NCBI GenBank assembly: GCA_963775275.1
Contig: CAVZII010000005.1
Location: forward strand, 1,731,445 to 1,795,444
Reading direction: 5' to 3'
From: an uncultured Alphaproteobacteria bacterium
GTDB taxonomy: Bacteria; Pseudomonadota; Alphaproteobacteria; Caulobacterales; Caulobacteraceae
Length of the DNA stretch: 64,000 nt
Within the stretch, counting starts at the first letter, position 1; every line of letters begins with the position of its first letter. Shown here in pieces: positions 24,293 through 58,159 of this stretch. The notes beneath the pieces were generated by a model that was not told the DNA's origin, ran no database searches, and was given only the letters and a program-made list of their open reading frames with translations. The position numbers and the translations under genes are program-made.

Positions 24293-24642
24293 CACGCCGC
24301 CCACTTCAGGCCGGACTGCAAGCGCATCGACGGGCCGCGCCGGGCCCGGACCGCCGCCAGGGAGACGACCGCCGGGCTGTGGACCACGCGCAGGCGCACG
24401 CCGCCTGCGGGCGTGGGCGTCAGGGTGAACTCCACCTCGCTGGCCGCCCAGCCAGGCTCGCGCCAGGCATAACGGACCCGTTCGTTGGGTTCGGCCTGCA
24501 AGATCTCGAATTCCACGGCCGGGCCCGAATCGGCCTCGGCGGGCGCCAGCCAGGCGCCGACCAGGTCCGGGTCGGTCAGCGCGCGCCACACCTTTTCCAA
24601 TGGCTCCGCCAGGTCTGCCTCGACGATGACCTCATCGCTCAT
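24292..24642 (-). CDS. SRPBCC-superfamily protein (Aha1/activator-of-Hsp90-ATPase-like)
   Basis: 116 aa MSDEVIVEADLAEPLEKVWRALTDPDLVGAWL.. with the typical SRPBCC N-terminal motif. ATGA overlap with the upstream arsR; its stop overlaps the clpP ATG by 1 nt. Confidence 0.6.
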   Translation of the reverse strand: MSDEVIVEADLAEPLEKVWRALTDPDLVGAWLAPAEADSGPAVEFEILQAEPNERVRYAWREPGWAASEVEFTLTPTPAGGVRLRVVHSPAVVSLAAVRARRGPSMRLQSGLKWAA

Positions 24643-24953: not shown

Positions 24954-25035
24954 GCCGATAAATAAGTCATGACTTATGCGAAAGCGCAAGCGTCAAAGCA
25001 GACGGCGCCACGCGGCCTGCCGGAAGTTGGCGGAC

Positions 25036-25200
25036 TGATGTGTCTGCTCTCCCAGTGGGAGAGGAAGGGGCCCATTGCGGAGCCGTGGGAAGGTGAGGGG
25101 TTTCGCTGGCGGCGTCTTATCCCCTCATCTTCCCACGCTCCTGGCGGAGCGCGGGCCCTTCTTCTCCCCATGGGAGAAGAAAGGTTCACCCCCGTTCCCA
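25036..25200. repeat. REP/MITE-like triple-hairpin intergenic element, copy A
   Basis: Three hairpins: ctctccc-agt-gggagag; cgtgggaaggtgagggg..(20-nt loop)..cccctcatcttcccacg; cccttcttctcccc-atg-gggagaagaaagg. About 75% identical in sequence and arrangement to copy B at 57270..57420. Confidence 0.6.
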
Positions 25201-25485
25201 GGCGATCTCCAGGGTCTCGCGGTGGGCGAAGCGCTCCAGGTGCCGGGCGATGACCTGCTCCATCCGCTCCAGATCCGGCTCGCTGGCGGCTTGCACGGTC
25301 AGCTCCAGGGCGTCGGCCTCGGCCTTCAGCGCACAGGCGCCGAAGGGGAACTCCAGGGCGCCGGCCTGGTCGTCGAAGCTGGCCGGCAGCTTGTGGGCGA
25401 AGTGCTTGCAGAGCTGGACCATGTAGCGGCGGCCCAGGGGCGTCGCCACCTTGGCCCGGGACTGTCTGGCGGCGAGCCCGCTCAT
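25186..25485 (-). CDS. DUF2218 domain protein
   Basis: 99 aa MSGLAARQSRAKVATPLGRRYMVQLCKHFAHKLPASFDD... ATGA overlap with the upstream padR. PadR plus DUF2218 is a recurrent pair. Confidence 0.65.
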   Translation of the reverse strand: MSGLAARQSRAKVATPLGRRYMVQLCKHFAHKLPASFDDQAGALEFPFGACALKAEADALELTVQAASEPDLERMEQVIARHLERFAHRETLEIAWERG

Positions 25486-26060: not shown

Positions 26061-26130
26061 GCATCTTTGGCAAGGGGCGCGGATCGAGGCGCGTCGTCGA
26101 TCGTCCCCCAAGGGGAGAAGATCGCGCGGT

Positions 26131-27155: not shown

Positions 27156-27713
27156 ATGATGGGCGTCGGACAGAAGCTGCCTGACTTCAAGCTCGTGGGC
27201 GTGAAGCCGGGATTCATGCGCCACGAGGAGAACGGCCAATCGGCCTTCGAGACCCTCACCCCCGAGAGCTTCCCCGGGAAGTGGAAGGTCATCTTCTTCT
27301 ATCCCAAGGACTTCACCTTCATCTGCCCCACCGAGATCGCCGAGTTCGCCCGGCTCAATCCCGAGTTCGCCGAACGCGACGCGGTGGTGCTGGGCGGCTC
27401 GGTGGACAACGAACACGTCAAGCTCGCCTGGCGGCGCGATCACCCCTCGCTGGCCAATCTGCCGATCTGGCAGTTCGCCGACTCCGGCGGCCGCTTCGCC
27501 CGCGCCCTGGGCGTGCTGGACGAGGCCGAAGGCGTGGCGCTGCGGGCCACCTTCGTGGTCGATCCCGAGGGCGTGATCCAGCACGTCTACGTCACCAACC
27601 TGAACGTGGGCCGCGCGCCGGCCGACACCCTGAGGGTCGTGGACGCGCTGCAGACCGACGAGCTTTGCGCCTGCAACCGTCCGGTCGGAGGGGACGTCCT
27701 CGAGGCTGCGTAG
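27156..27713 (+). CDS. ahpC: Peroxiredoxin, AhpC/TSA family (alkyl hydroperoxide reductase C-like)
   Basis: 185 aa ..FFYPKDFTFICPTEI.. (peroxidatic Cys) and a C-terminal ..ELCACN.. (resolving Cys region). Confidence 0.85.
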   Translation: MMGVGQKLPDFKLVGVKPGFMRHEENGQSAFETLTPESFPGKWKVIFFYPKDFTFICPTEIAEFARLNPEFAERDAVVLGGSVDNEHVKLAWRRDHPSLANLPIWQFADSGGRFARALGVLDEAEGVALRATFVVDPEGVIQHVYVTNLNVGRAPADTLRVVDALQTDELCACNRPVGGDVLEAA

Positions 27714-45956: not shown

Positions 45957-46201
45957 GCCGCGGGCCCCTCGGCGGCGGCGGCCAGCCGACGGTCGATCCA
46001 GGCCGCCACCGCGCGGGCGTCGCTGTGTTCCTCGAACTGGTCGCTCGGCAGCTCGATCGCAAACCTCAGCTCCAGCTCCACGGCGATCTGGAGCGTCTGC
46101 ATGGAGTCCCCGCCCAGACTGTAGACGTCCTTGTCCACGTCCGCACAGGGACGGCCCAACACCTGCGCGTACACCGACTGCACGATGTCGAGCGTGGTCA
46201 T
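45953..46201 (-). CDS. Acyl/peptidyl carrier protein 1 (PCP-like GGDSM 4'-phosphopantetheine site)
   Basis: 82 aa MTTLDIVQSVYAQVLG..DVYSLGGDSMQTLQIAVELE.. ATGA overlap with the upstream gene. Confidence 0.8.
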   Translation of the reverse strand: MTTLDIVQSVYAQVLGRPCADVDKDVYSLGGDSMQTLQIAVELELRFAIELPSDQFEEHSDARAVAAWIDRRLAAAAEGPAA

Positions 46202-47558: not shown

Positions 47559-47810
47559 TCAACCCATCGGGCCGGGCCCGGCGAGGGCCGCGCGCTGGCG
47601 GTCGATCCAGGCCGCGACGGAGCGCGCGTCGCTGCACTCTTCGAACTCCTCGAGCGGGAGCTCCAACGCGAACTGCAACTCCAGCTCGAGGGCGATCTGG
47701 ACCGCCTGAACCGAGTCCCCGCCGAGCGCATAGACGTCCGCGTCCACGTCGGGCGCGTCGAGGCCCAGGACTTCGGCGTAGACCGTCCGTACGACGTCCA
47801 GTGTGGTCAA
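47559..47810 (-). CDS. Acyl/peptidyl carrier protein 2 (paralog of 45953..46201)
   Basis: 83 aa MTTLDVVRTVYAEVLG..DVYALGGDSVQAVQIALELE.., about 65% identical to carrier 1. ATGA overlap with the hydrolase B stop. Confidence 0.8.
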   Translation of the reverse strand: MTTLDVVRTVYAEVLGLDAPDVDADVYALGGDSVQAVQIALELELQFALELPLEEFEECSDARSVAAWIDRQRAALAGPGPMG

Positions 47811-56608: not shown

Positions 56609-57269
56609 ATGCCGCTTCAGCTCAACGACACCGCTCCGGACTTCACCGCCGAGACCACCGAGGGACCGATCCGCTTCTACGACTGGGCGGGCGATTCCTG
56701 GGTGCTGCTGTTCTCCCACCCCAAGGACTTCACGCCGGTCTGCACCACCGAGCTCGGCGCGGTCGCCAGGCTCAAGCCGGAGTTCGACAAGCGCGGGGTC
56801 AAGGTGATCGGCCTGTCGGTGGACCCGGTCGAGAACCATTCGGCCTGGTCCAAGGACATCGAGGAGACCCAGGGCCTGGCTCCCAACTTCCCGATGATCG
56901 GCGACACGGACCTGAAGGTCTCCAAGCTCTACGGCATGTTGCCGGCGGACACGGAGGGGACGTCCGAGGGCCGCACGGCGGCCAACAACGCCACGGTCCG
57001 CAACGTCTTCGTCATCGGACCGGACAAGCAGATCAAGCTCCTGCTGGTCTACCCGATGACGACCGGGCGGAACTTCGAGGAGATCCTGCGGGTGATCGAA
57101 CTCCATGCAGCTCACCGCCCGTCACAAGGTCGCGACGCCGGCGGACTGGAAACAGGGCGAGGACGTGATCATCGTCCCGGCGGTCTCCAACGACCAGGCC
57201 AAGGACATGTTCCCCAAGGGCTTCAAGGAGCTGAAGCCCTACCTGCGGACCACGCCCCAGCCGGGGTGA
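56609..57269 (+). CDS. 1-Cys peroxiredoxin (Prx6-like), interrupted by an apparent +1 frameshift near 57099
   Basis: MPLQLNDTAPDFTAETTEGPIRFYDW..HPKDFTPVCTTELG..LLLVYPMTTGRNFEEILRVI then the frame shifts. The -1 frame continues DSMQLTARHKVATPADWKQGEDVIIVPAVSNDQAKDMFPKGFKELKPYLRTTPQPG*, the canonical Prx6 C-terminus. Deleting one a of gAActcc restores 219 aa. Confidence 0.8.
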
Positions 57270-57420
57270 GCTCTCCTCTCCCATAGGAAGAGGATGGGGG
57301 CCCGCGCCGGAGGCGTGGGAAGGTGAGAGGTTCCGGCGACGAGGACCGAACCCCCTCGTCCTCCCGCCGCCTTTCAGGCGCCGGGCCCCTCCTTCTCCCG
57401 ATGGGAGAAGGAAGAGCACA
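57270..57420. repeat. REP/MITE-like triple-hairpin intergenic element, copy B (overlaps the moeB 3' end)
   Basis: cctctccc-ata-ggaagagg; gcgtgggaaggtgagaggtt...aaccccctcgtcctcccgc; cccctccttctccc-gatg-ggagaaggaagag. Same order, spacing and about 75% identity to copy A at 25036..25200. Confidence 0.6.
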
Positions 57421-58159
57421 CCGGGCACTCCGGATCGGGAGACAGGCCGACGGTCCGGACCTCGGCGGCGAGGGCGTCGTAGATCAGGAGGCGCCCCGAC
57501 AGGGTCTCGCCGGCGCCCGTGATCCGCTTGACGGCCTCGAGCGCCATCATCGAGCCGATGACTCCGGCCAGGGCGCCCATGACGCCCACGGCCGAGCAGG
57601 TCTCCGCGTCCGGCGGCATCTCGCTGACCAGGCACCGGTAGCAGGGCCTCTCCGGATCGAGGCCGGACTCGAAGAGCGCGAGCTGGCCGGTCCAGCGGCC
57701 GATCGCGCCCGAGACCAACGGCTTGTGTTCGGCATGGCAGGCGGCGTTCACGGCGAAGCGCGTCTCGAAGCTGTCGGTGCCGTCGAGCACCAGGTCGTAG
57801 CCCGCAACGAGGGCGCGGGCGTTGGCCTCGTCGAGCCGGACCGCATGGGGCTCGACCACGACGTTGGGATTGAGCGCGCCGAGCGCCTCGGCCGCCGCCT
57901 CCACTTTCGCCCGATCGACGTCGGCGGTCCCATAGAGCACCTGCCGCTGGAGGTTCGACAACGCCACCGTGTCAGCATCGACCAGGCCCAGCGTCCCGAC
58001 CCCGGCGGCCGCCAGGTAGAGCGCCGCGGGCGCGCCCAGGCCCCCCGCGCCGACGATCAGCACCCTCGCCGCCTTCAGGCGCTGCTGCCCCGGACCGCCG
58101 ATCTCGCGCAGCACCAGGTGGCGGGCGTAGCGCTCGACCTCCTCGTCGGTGAAGCTCAT
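57374..58159 (-). CDS. moeB: Molybdopterin-synthase adenylyltransferase MoeB / ThiF-family E1-like enzyme
   Basis: 261 aa [55 protein letters not shown].. with two CxxC zinc motifs (..CYRC.., ..CPVC..). The last ~15 codons lie inside repeat copy B. Confidence 0.85.

Follow-up and report, generated by a model that had tools for sequence, protein, structure and literature searches.

Structured repeat modules of Alphaproteobacteria bracket DUF559 endonuclease genes and co-vary by the rule of a purine-motif triplex

Two intergenic segments of the window, i.e. the whole 64,000-nucleotide stretch of DNA analyzed here, are built from a structured repeat module, and the physical association of this module with genes of the DUF559 family is the main new result of the present analysis. 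On balance, and with moderate confidence, the segments are interpreted by analogy as gene-less, REPIN-like partners of a DUF559 nuclease that would act at the level of DNA. The modules are related in design to the BoxC/PIT/TMECO repeats, which have thousands of occurrences in proteobacterial genomes and have been studied biophysically; BoxC/PIT repeats reportedly go back to work by Bergler in 1992 and by Hoyne and Maher in 2000. To our knowledge, these repeats have been on record from the early 1990s onward and have remained for some 30 years without a known origin, function or mobilizing enzyme, and we know of no role assigned to DUF559, a very large family of “endonuclease domain-containing” proteins. 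If the link is true, a candidate function is provided for each of them, and a new enzyme class is added to the few systems that disperse structured repeats in bacteria. Furthermore, the repeats mark synteny breakpoints, generate spurious ORFs and change real C-termini (that of moeB here), so that their recognition improves annotation.

The two copies in the window are each ~140 bp in length and are listed with their parts in Table 1. Their identity is ~80% per aligned column and 76% across the full element, and both their position and their gene context agree with the first-pass annotation, in which the pair had been reported. Copy A is flanked on one side by the stop codon of the DUF2218 gene (25186-25188, minus strand) and on the other by the start of arsR (24953) and its promoter region, and copy B lies between prx and moeB. 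It can be observed that in both copies the left and right halves are reverse complements of each other across ~60 nt, forming a near-complete two-fold inverted repeat of two modules that face each other at a spacing of 14-15 nt. The three hairpins described previously are real, but this two-fold symmetry was overlooked, as was a second, variable hairpin of the form CCCnnnn-GNA-nnnnGGG in each half. Likewise, the pairing of the previously described “long central hairpin” exists, but is actually that of the two G-rich tails; the left tail of copy A doubles as its 5' arm. Within the window, the core GCGTGGGAAGGTGAGRGGTT occurs three times at up to 3 mismatches (0.01 expected by chance), the terminal hairpin pattern 10 times (0.25 expected), and a 22-nt degenerate terminal pattern matches exactly the four element ends (0.00 expected). 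The folds are equally distinctive, with z = -5.2 on both strands for copy A and z = -6.9 and -7.5 on the two strands for copy B, none of 200 shuffles being as good in either case. Copy A, which was aligned with 14 other full elements, carries a T-A*A signature in its right module where the left module has C-G*G. The left module of copy B is a slightly decayed copy, since two of its positions violate the pairing and triplet rules. Moreover, the 3' end of moeB is contributed by the copy B element: the stop codon (57374-57376) falls in the loop of a hairpin 2, and the closest element-carrying relatives have an FSH(R/G)EKEGP tail in common, whereas most MoeB homologues finish in ...CPVCG. At the moeB-prx site of another contig (P0009), the two genes are separated by an insert of ~965 nt.

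Table 1. Positions of the two repeat copies in the window and of their component parts.
Feature	Position	Strand	Description
Copy A	25043..25182	.	Complete doublet, inward-facing module pair; nhmmer full-element and half-module models
Copy A, left module, hairpin 1	25047..25063	+	Pyrimidine arm CTCTCCC, loop AGT, purine arm GGGAGAG
Copy A, left module, hairpin 2	25071..25089	+	CCCATTGCGGAGCCGTGGG; holds d(GCGGAGC) mini-hairpin with GNA triloop; basis: hairpin 2 co-variation
Copy A, left module, G-rich tail	25091..25100	+	AGGTGAGGGG; candidate third strand; basis: triplet compatibility
Copy A, right module	25118..25182	-	Half-module match, score 44
Copy A, right module, hairpin 1	25161-25179	-	Arms CTTCTCCC/GGGAGAAG
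Copy A, right module, hairpin 2	25132-25155	-	
Copy A, right module, tail	25121-25130	-	AGATGAGGGG
Copy B	57272..57413	.	Complete doublet between convergent prx (stop 57267-57269) and moeB
Copy B, left module	57274..57330	+	Half-module match, score 44
Copy B, left module, hairpin 1	57274-57294	+	TCCTCTCCC-ATA-GGAAGAGGA
Copy B, left module, hairpin 2	57301-57319	+	CCCGCGCCGGAGGCGTGGG
Copy B, left module, tail	57321-57330	+	AGGTGAGAGG
Copy B, right module	57349..57413	-	Half-module match, score 46; also caught by the sequence-agnostic triplex-motif finder
Copy B, right module, tail complement	57351-57362	-	
Copy B, right module, hairpin 2	57363-57385	-	
Copy B, right module, hairpin 1	57391-57411	-	CCTTCTCCC-GAT-GGGAGAAGG
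moeB ORF 3' end inside copy B	57374..57415	-	Last 13 codons and stop; basis: ORF table, translation

Each module of ~62 nt has two arms, one of pyrimidines (CCTCTCCC) and one of purines (GGGAGAGG), as well as a GC-rich mini-hairpin and a G-rich tail, GGTGAGGGG. Hairpin 1 has the form (T/C)CCTCTCCC-N3-GGGAGAGG(A/G) with 7-9 bp, and is conserved in 173 unique modules. In an alignment of 22 modules, helix 1 was 99% paired with two compensatory pairs, and overall 98.4% of cells were paired and six pairs displayed compensatory changes; the co-variation score of this alignment was 0.315 compared with 0.132 for shuffles, none of 500 scoring as high, and slid controls remained at or below 0.11. Hairpin 2 is held in the second loop, the ~25-35 nt from the purine arm to the G-rich tail. 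Its 87 unique sequences form stems with a mean of 7.1 bp, compared with 4.6 bp when partners are permuted, and contain 46 G.T pairs but only 2 A.C pairs, indicating that the G-rich strand is the folding strand. A GNA triloop is present in 47 of the 87 and the d(GCGNAGC) motif in 43.

Changes in the two arms of hairpin 1 and in the tail are coupled. Triplets of arm, arm and tail obey C-G*G or T-A*A/T in 96.5% of cases in register, compared with 42-61% in shifted registers. At three positions all three letters change together, for example 149 C-G*G against 23 T-A*A/T with a single exception (Fisher p 1e-27), and the triple co-variation is repeated in a variant subfamily, in which CTTCCCCC is paired with GAAGGGGG. 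The co-variation follows the purine-motif DNA triplex rule; the tail, which mirrors the purine arm, could lie along hairpin 1 and so provide the third strand of a triplex, and such a triplex may form in vivo. From a comparative standpoint, the triple co-variation would also argue for selection in vivo on an intrastrand DNA triplex, or at the least on its mirror symmetry. Two other readings of the tail were rejected. A G-quadruplex (Kaplan et al., PMC5100583) fits less well than a triplex or mirror repeat because G-to-A changes that co-vary with the C strand interrupt the G-runs, and Watson-Crick pairing between tail and pyrimidine arm is contradicted by the register of the co-variation, which is parallel and not antiparallel.

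Since this co-variation obeys the purine-motif rule, the module is probably a variant of BoxC/PIT/TMECO whose second loop has an extra hairpin inserted into it. TMECO, named BoxC or PIT earlier, is defined as 5'-CCCTCNCCC N3-6 GGGNGAGGG N3 GGGNGAGGG and forms a triplex in vitro, and its inverted pairs combine a type A and a type B (PMC4666352). According to Holder et al., it is abundant in E. coli and Enterobacter and missing from Salmonella. In both systems a pyrimidine arm, a short loop and a complementary purine arm are followed by a second G-rich block mirroring the purine arm, and both are intergenic, multi-copy, without strand bias, and found as inverted pairs of two subtypes (23 of the 30 short inward pairs here are heterotypic, i.e. 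carry two signatures). The published pattern is not matched literally because hairpin 2 parts the G-rich block from the purine arm: the second loop is 3 nt in TMECO, whereas here it is lengthened by the co-varying GC mini-hairpin. The arms also differ (CCTCTCCC/GGGAGAGG here, CCCTCNCCC in TMECO), and the hosts here are Alphaproteobacteria. In E. coli, the triplex was undetected in double-stranded DNA and in vivo, and no association with mobile elements was seen (Holder et al., PMC4666352); the published work on TMECO reports no gene or mobile-element link, in contrast to the bracketing of DUF559 genes by the modules described here.

Regarding this bracketing, eight inward module pairs lie 330-750 nt apart, seven of which enclose a DUF559 ORF (Pfam PF04480, E-values 1e-32 to 1e-43), the remaining one holding another palindrome. 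Among the 22 closest metagenomic DUF559 homologues, 18 are flanked by full modules, one upstream (+) and one 1-10 nt downstream (-); three of the other four lie at a contig end, each with the one module visible, and one has a doublet downstream instead. The repeat loci had been collected with a pattern derived from the element itself, a bias that the gene-side scan of DUF559 was meant to offset. Using a sequence-agnostic triplex-motif finder at 64 diverse DUF559 loci, inward motifs flanked the gene on both sides at 41 loci and on a single side at another 15, and the motif density was 3.48 per kb near the gene compared with 0.10 per kb further off, an enrichment of ~35-fold. Both flanking modules bear the same triplet signature in 18 of 21 long forms (homotypic), and signatures vary between DUF559 lineages, which suggests that the gene and its repeats co-evolve. 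One long form is located at a conserved orthologous locus (L014, L140, L147 and L166) and looks vertical rather than mobile; related DUF559 genes with 82% identity are found in unrelated contexts. The genome of the window appears to encode a module-associated DUF559 gene elsewhere (P0186): the contig of this gene is 4,483,369 bp long, as is the one that bears the window's MoeB and DUF2218 proteins, and the last 21 residues of its product result from read-through into a module downstream that is of the type seen in the window.

The DUF559 proteins consist of ~115 residues with invariant D47, E58, D60 and H64 and a core of the Vsr-type PD-(D/E)XK class. The nearest solved structure to the profile is 3HRL (E 7e-34), followed weakly by the homing endonuclease I-Bth0305I (3R3P, E 0.011). 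The EDxHD homing endonucleases share the Vsr-type core and provide a precedent for this fold in the nuclease of a selfish element; unlike them, the DUF559 proteins lack an extra DNA-binding domain and are situated outside introns and inteins. In Caulobacter crescentus, a DUF559 protein is a genotoxic nuclease (PMC12907096).

The explanation favored here is as follows. The repeat unit is the ~62-nt module; on its G-rich strand, the one that folds, hairpin 1 is followed by a very stable GC mini-hairpin, often d(GCGNAGC), and by the tail. The 140-bp element consists of a pair of such modules oriented toward each other across 14-15 nt. As the same inward layout in the same lineages brackets the gene of a Vsr-like PD-(D/E)XK endonuclease, the doublets may be non-autonomous partners of this nuclease, comparable with REPINs and their RAYT transposase. 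The DUF559 nuclease may recognize the folded single-stranded module in DNA, with the result that repeats are copied, moved or homogenized, and effects on neighboring genes, such as hairpins at 3' ends and the altered C-terminus of moeB, would be by-products. By this analogy, DUF559 could be what spreads a BoxC-like class of repeats. No transposition or cleavage events were observed, which counts against mobility. The REP/BIME/REPIN-RAYT systems similarly consist of short structured repeats beside gene ends, present singly and as inverted doublets without target-site duplication, with a small nuclease gene between two inverted repeats, apparent co-evolution of the two and some loci that are vertical. 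The name “REP-like” used in the first-pass annotation was therefore a fair analogy, since the inward pairs, outward pairs and singles found here are also seen for REPs in BIMEs and REPINs. The differences are that the module consensus has no GTAG/CTAC head, that the unit is 62 nt long, with two hairpins plus a tail of triplex type, in place of a single palindrome of 20-40 nt, and that the flanked gene, as assigned from its sequence, is DUF559 (PF04480) and not an HUH/Y1 transposase of the IS200/IS605-like type.

A genome scan with the terminal pattern returned at least 117 stretches, and nhmmer gave 201 module matches in the window and the 117 listed loci. With metagenome loci added, 175 full modules at ~110 loci were counted among the matches listed, which, together with the compensatory changes, shows that the family is neither confined to the two window copies nor devoid of structural conservation; the dispersed structured repeat family proposed earlier is thus real and extends well outside the source genome. 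Among these matches, modules occur in Caulobacterales, Sphingomonadales, Hyphomicrobiales, Parvibaculum, Rhodospirillales and unclassified “Proteobacteria” MAGs; all but one of the 175 belong to alphaproteobacterial or unclassified proteobacterial records, the exception being a weak match on an Anaerolineales MAG contig. The alphaproteobacterial hosts have a G+C content of 65-71%. Inward pairs are commoner than other arrangements among the matches listed, singles and outward pairs also being common, and the spacer within doublets is 14-76 nt. Copies from different orders resemble each other (83-87%) as much as sampled copies inside one genome do (64-90%), and because of the latter values no recent burst is visible. 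At the orthologous moeB-prx site, the doublet is present in the window and in one relative (L200), only a solo hairpin in two others (L202/L203) and a variant doublet in a further two (L204/L205), a pattern that deletion would explain as readily as insertion. Downstream of DUF2218, one relative (L206) has an empty site and another (L208) the variant doublet.

These data can also be viewed in terms of immobile DNA motifs kept by the host, such as protein-binding, replication-pausing or recombination-prone sites, with DUF559 being a repair or processing nuclease, or simply an insulated gene, and no spreading involved. The strong conservation of sequence and triplet rules across orders and the vertical inheritance of one DUF559 locus would be expected on these terms; in addition, Holder et al. 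tie TMECO to local genomic instability and not to mobility (PMC4666352), and the C. crescentus DUF559 protein VsrA has been proposed as a mismatch-repair nuclease (PMC12907096). Nevertheless, inward modules of matching signature at both ends of DUF559 genes in many unrelated contexts are left unexplained, as are sites at which relatives differ by a whole doublet or subfamily, and the motifs have no known host protein partner. Immobile motifs are consequently regarded as unlikely, though deserving of consideration.

A role in RNA, also raised in the first-pass annotation, would have the hairpins in the 3' UTR terminate transcription or shield mRNA from 3' exonucleases. Both window copies and many of the 31 doublets start 1-10 nt beyond a stop codon, each strand gives folds of high stability, and the co-variation and G.U tolerance of the hairpins would suit RNA too. 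However, neither element contains a U-tract or terminator-like site, the single such site (25186-25205, minus) lying at the DUF2218 stop codon outside copy A, and what is found instead is co-variation of tail and hairpin 1 in a parallel register that Watson-Crick pairing does not explain. A purine-motif triplex of this kind does not form in RNA, and the E. coli PIT/BoxC repeats have neither promoter nor terminator activity (Holder et al. 2015, PMC4666352). Outward pairs, single modules and modules flanking DUF559 genes exist as well. At the gathering threshold, an Rfam search of the whole window returned only two tRNAs, and an E-value scan gave only microRNA-hairpin look-alikes far below threshold; a sigma-70 promoter scan of both elements found nothing inside. 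A host RNA element is accordingly held to be improbable, and the suggested function in termination or mRNA stability is not upheld.

Alternatively, the doublet could be primary and DUF559 a gene resembling that of a homing endonuclease, which inserts at the doublet center and for which the window copies would be unoccupied targets. The gene in the long forms sits exactly at the position of the doublet spacer, DUF559 is weakly similar to the Vsr-like I-Bth0305I, and the related genes of 82% identity occupy unrelated contexts. On the other hand, most long forms are homotypic whereas heterotypic pairs prevail among free doublets, no orthologous site among the loci compared was found in both an occupied and an unoccupied state, and the multiplication of the doublets themselves is not accounted for. 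Insertion by homing is therefore very doubtful. The same contrast in signatures led to rejection of an origin of the doublets as plain internal deletions of the sampled long forms.

A classical MITE, i.e. a deletion derivative of an insertion sequence moved in trans by its DDE transposase, is largely refuted and hardly credible despite a length of ~140 bp, long terminal inverted repeats and an intergenic, multi-copy occurrence, as none of 31 doublets has a target-site duplication (the flanks only add a few A/T bases to the palindrome), none of the module pairs encloses a transposase, single modules and outward pairs are frequent, and the inverted ends are internally structured and co-varying, unlike transposase-binding ends. 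The MITE label of the first-pass annotation is borne out only in part, in that long inverted ends are present. Bacterial MITEs such as Correia/NEMIS, ERIC/IRU and RUP do share with the element a length of 100-200 bp, inverted ends, long stem-loops and a location that is intergenic or fused to ORF ends, as in the moeB tail. They differ in their TA or other target-site duplication and their parent IS with a transposase, half-elements being common here; the long forms with the same ends as the doublets encode DUF559, which is no known transposase.

Other repeats and possible vehicles were also compared. CIR1-4, the CcrM-associated intergenic repeats of Caulobacter and Brucella (Chen and Shapiro 2003), belong to the same host group and are, according to the summary in PMC2229807, defined by conserved GANTC methylation sites, ~110 bp in length, intergenic, and composed of two inverted-repeat arms and a linker. 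GANTC is absent from 25036-25200 and 57264-57425, the nearest sites being at 24527 and 57560, and on this ground the window copies are set apart from the CIRs as so described. The ScmA methylation motif YGCCGGCR is likewise absent from both elements. In the plasmid and phage collections, three single-module matches were found, all in Azospirillum chromids and none in the phage collection, so that no tie to plasmid or phage vehicles is indicated.

The partnership of doublet and DUF559 nuclease favored above may have a wider counterpart. It is conceivable, as a tentative extension, that BoxC/PIT/TMECO-type repeats across Proteobacteria and beyond are non-autonomous partners of YcjD-like, Vsr-fold DUF559 genes. 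They would then represent a second REPIN/RAYT-like system, based on a PD-(D/E)XK nuclease that recognizes intrastrand-triplex single-stranded DNA, to which a mini-hairpin has been added in Alphaproteobacteria. In E. coli, the DUF559 gene ycjD carries a BoxC repeat together with a degenerate copy on its 3' side.

Both intergenic segments that had been singled out as a triple-hairpin repeat are present where they were placed, and their alignment displays about 80% column identity, or 76% over the whole element. The core proposed for them occurs 3 times at ≤3 mismatches against 0.01 expected and the terminal hairpin pattern 10 times against 0.25, and a 22-nt degenerate pattern of the element ends matches the four copy ends and nothing else. 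On both strands, copies A and B fold far better than dinucleotide shuffles (z −5.2 to −7.5). Alignment of each copy to its own reverse complement reveals a two-fold inverted repeat whose unit is a module of about 62 nt. In the window, two modules face inward, 14-15 nt apart, an arrangement termed a doublet here. As regards the three hairpins described in the first-pass annotation, the outer ones are hairpin 1 of each module, the “long central hairpin” is in fact the two module tails pairing with each other, and hairpin 2 had been overlooked. The gene setting was read correctly, with copy A flanked by the DUF2218 stop and the region upstream of arsR, and copy B between the convergent genes prx and moeB.

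Parts of the module, and positions of the features discussed, in the window or in the comparison locus named
Feature	Location	Sequence or extent
Hairpin 1	module, first part	pyrimidine arm (T/C)CCTCTCCC, 3-nt loop, purine arm GGGAGAGG(A/G)
Linker	module, after hairpin 1	AGGGG
Hairpin 2	module, after linker	CCCnnnn-loop-nnnnGGG, stem variable
Tail	module, last part	A(G/A)GGTGAGGGGTT
Copy A	window 25043..25182	
Copy B	window 57272..57413	
Palindrome just upstream of arsR start	window 24962-24977	ATAAGTCATGACTTAT, perfect, 16 bp
DUF2218 downstream junction	window 25186	
Solo hairpin between padR and LysR-type gene	window 26102-26120	TCCCCCAAGGGGAGA
Diverged direct repeats, first pair	window 45970-46141 and 47579-47750	77% identity
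Diverged direct repeats, second pair	window 27294-27407 and 56711-56824	74% identity
prx (1-Cys peroxiredoxin)	window 56609..57269	
Frameshift in prx	window, near 57098 (57090-57105)	+1
moeB end derived from copy B	window 57374-57415	final 13 codons and stop codon
Hairpin at moeB-prx site	L202 2272-2299	CCCCTCCCCCTGACGGGGAGGGG
Variant subfamily	L204 2290-2400; L208 1780-1900	hairpin CTTCCCCC/GGGGGAAG, mini-hairpin TCCGCCCGAAGGGCGGGA, matching tail GAAGGGGG
Different palindromic insert	L061 1717-1893	CACGAAG / CTTCGTG repeats
Partial ycjD 3'-end duplicate (E. coli K-12, ycjD-fabI)	L199 5240-5420	GGAGACGGTGCTGGAGAATATTC...

The hairpins show structural constraint. When 22 equally long modules are aligned, pairing holds in 98.4% of cells and compensatory changes are found at 6 pairs, with a co-variation score of 0.315 compared with 0.132 in shuffles (0 of 500 as high) and ≤0.11 in slid controls. 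Among 87 unique hairpin 2 sequences, which comprise 31 variants at stem positions 3-7, the uninterrupted stem averages 7.1 bp; permuting the 3' arms lowers this to 4.6 bp (at most 5.07 in 200 permutations). Since hairpin 2 contains 46 G.T pairs and only 2 A.C pairs, it is the G-rich strand that folds. A GNA triloop is present in 47 of the 87 loops, and d(GCGNAGC), reportedly described by Hirao and colleagues as a DNA mini-hairpin of exceptional stability, lies within 43 of the 87 stems. The tail has no complementarity to any part of its own module. Placed parallel to the pyrimidine arm, it obeys the purine-motif triplex rule, in which arm C is matched by tail G and arm T by A or T. Across 173 unique modules, 96.5% of the arm/arm/tail triplets (nine per module) are allowed in register, compared with 42-61% when shifted. 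The first variable position displays C-G*G 113 times and T-A*A 16 times, the second C-G*G 149, T-A*A 22 and T-A*T 1 with one exception (Fisher p 1e-27), and the third C-G*G 154, T-A*A 9 and T-A*T 5, counts that inflate the number of independent events, the sequences being related. Several solutions (A or T in the tail, three positions) are found in separate lineages. In both window copies, the triplets also switch from the left module to the right, CCTCTCCC..GGGAGAGG..GGTGAGGG versus CTTCTCCC..GGGAGAAG..GATGAGGG.

A genome scan by terminal pattern returned at least 117 stretches. Over these loci and the window, an nhmmer half-element model gave at least 201 module matches, and at least 175 full modules were counted once metagenome loci were added, which, together with the hairpin co-variation, bears out the earlier reading of a dispersed structured repeat. 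Full modules are hosted by Caulobacterales, Sphingomonadales, Hyphomicrobiales (including Aestuariivirga), Parvibaculum, Rhodospirillales, Kiloniellales and unclassified proteobacterial MAGs, and one weak full-length match lies in an Anaerolineales MAG contig. Among the nhmmer matches listed, those from other phyla cover hairpin 1 only; loci of Xanthomonas, Variovorax and Enterobacter carry related short modules without hairpin 2. Inward pairs spaced by 7-76 nt (as in the window), outward pairs, singles and inward pairs spaced by 330-750 nt all occur. At L061, the two modules of one element are separated by a different palindromic insert, apparently a second repeat family nested within the element.

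The module shares its design with the E. coli “TMECO” pattern, CCCTCNCCC N3-6 GGGNGAGGG N3 GGGNGAGGG, formerly named BoxC and later PIT element (Holder et al. 2015, PMC4666352); BoxC also figures in a list of known E. coli repeat families (PMC2267715). TMECO has a second loop without hairpin 2, whereas the alphaproteobacterial module carries hairpin 2 there and fails the literal pattern on that feature only. TMECO is counted 3610 times across 262 proteobacterial genomes and lies exclusively between genes in E. coli K-12, where five inverted pairs are always of type A plus type B. The authors link it to local genomic variability and saw no connection to mobile elements (PMC4666352). The isolated TMECO strand forms a stable purine-motif triplex, which was observed neither in duplex DNA nor in vivo, and no promoter or terminator activity was found (PMC4666352). 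The Caulobacter CIR repeats form a separate family: GANTC sites define it, and GANTC is absent from both window copies. The window element represents a new variant, from Alphaproteobacteria, of a repeat class that is known but has no explanation.

The widely spaced inward pairs connect this class with a gene. Among the loci listed, 7 of 8 such pairs have between them an ORF of roughly 115 residues, and these ORFs match Pfam DUF559 (PF04480) with E-values of 1e-32 to 1e-43; among the genome-scan loci listed, 8 of 9 alphaproteobacterial DUF559 genes touch modules. From the gene side, metagenome contigs were scanned with a DUF559 alignment. A full module upstream (+) and another 1-10 nt downstream (−) accompany 18 of the 22 closest homologues; at three, the contig end cuts the locus and the one observable module is present, and one has a doublet downstream instead. 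More distant DUF559 genes are without this exact module; inverted repeats with the same grammar nevertheless flank most of them. With a sequence-agnostic triplex-motif finder applied to 64 DUF559 loci with sufficient flank, inward motifs were found on both sides at 41, on one side at 15 and on neither at 8, the density being 3.48 per kb adjoining the gene versus 0.10 per kb further off. In 18 of 21 long forms (module pairs enclosing the gene), both modules have the same triplet signature; signatures vary between DUF559 lineages, and hairpin 2 varies freely in sequence from one end to the other. At one conserved locus (L014, L140, L147, L166), the flanks of the long forms are 85-92% identical and the DUF559 gene only 70-74%, so that the gene either evolves faster than its neighbours or was replaced. 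DUF559 genes 82% identical to each other also sit in unrelated contexts. In E. coli, the DUF559 gene ycjD adjoins fabI, which we take to be the former envM, near which BoxC was reportedly first described by Bergler in 1992. A degenerate module lies over the ycjD stop codon, with an intact BoxC about 170 nt downstream; the ycjD 3'-end duplicate between them suggests a past rearrangement at the repeat. No DUF559 gene lies within the 64-kb window. The DUF559 protein P0186 appears to be encoded by the same genome outside it, and at its C terminus 21 residues (RPLTFPLLCNGPLPLPMGEET) come from reading through into a module of the window type that lies downstream. No report of the DUF559-repeat link was found in the literature searched, and it appears to be previously unreported; it makes an old open question of this repeat class testable.

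Presence and absence at orthologous sites were also observed. At the moeB-prx site, a doublet is present in the window and L200, and a variant-subfamily doublet in L204 and L205; in L202 and L203, the 28-nt spacer holds no more than a single 23-nt hairpin. Downstream of DUF2218, no module is present in L206, and L208 has the variant subfamily of L204; at both sites, this subfamily comes from metagenomes of one project. These differences indicate that the same sites were re-used, or that copies were homogenised within a lineage. Copy identity is 64-90% within one genome, implying no recent burst in the sampled copies, and up to 83-87% between orders; these values argue for constraint or exchange over neutral decay. 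In one relative (contig of P0009, JGI 3300047160), about 965 nt lie between moeB and prx at the copy B position, with two small ORFs of 100 and 103 aa and no Pfam match. The DUF2218 downstream junction (window, L206, L208) is a synteny breakpoint, with the repeat there in two lineages; the following gene is arsR in the window, a Crp-family gene in L206, peptidase S9 in L208, and GIY-YIG then peptidase S9 in a further contig.

The active form of the modules may be single-stranded DNA folded from the G-rich strand; the DUF559 nuclease would recognise the modules and drive their spread or homogenisation. By analogy with REPINs and RAYTs, the window doublets could be its non-autonomous partners. 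Speculatively, a heterotypic doublet, with modules of different triplet signature, might fold back on itself and form G.T mismatches between them; T:G mismatches are the substrate of Vsr. That DUF559 is an active nuclease is supported by the SOS response caused by C. crescentus VsrA (PMC12907096), the strong structure match to the solved DUF559 3HRL and the weak match to the Vsr-like homing endonuclease 3R3P. An immobile host motif, with DUF559 as its processing enzyme, is a possible alternative that accounts for the conserved DUF559 locus but leaves the matching module ends in many contexts unaccounted for. Homing of DUF559 into doublets is also possible, but doublet multiplication is then left unaccounted for. 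The classical MITE considered in the first-pass annotation is largely excluded, target-site duplications being found in 0 of 31 doublets. Its other suggestion, an RNA terminator or stabiliser, agrees with the position after stop codons but is at odds with the lack of a U-tract, the co-variation of the tail in triplex register and the absence of terminator activity in the E. coli counterpart (PMC4666352).

Several further observations concern the surroundings of the window copies. The moeB ORF ends within copy B; the resulting MoeB tail, FSH(R/G)EKEGP, is common to the closest element-carrying relatives, while most MoeB homologues end CPVCG. The palindrome between arsR and copy A is a plausible candidate ArsR operator, which would place copy A upstream of the arsR control region, not inside it. 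The solo hairpin of the window resembles hairpin 1 alone, and this hairpin and the similar one of L202 may be element remnants or precursor hairpins. In prx, the N-terminal 164 and C-terminal 55 residues are in different frames with reference to the intact 218-aa L202 orthologue, reflecting either a sequencing error or a pseudogene. Each pair of diverged direct repeats probably represents paralogous coding sequence; the second pair connects prx beside copy B with a region beside the LysR-type regulator.
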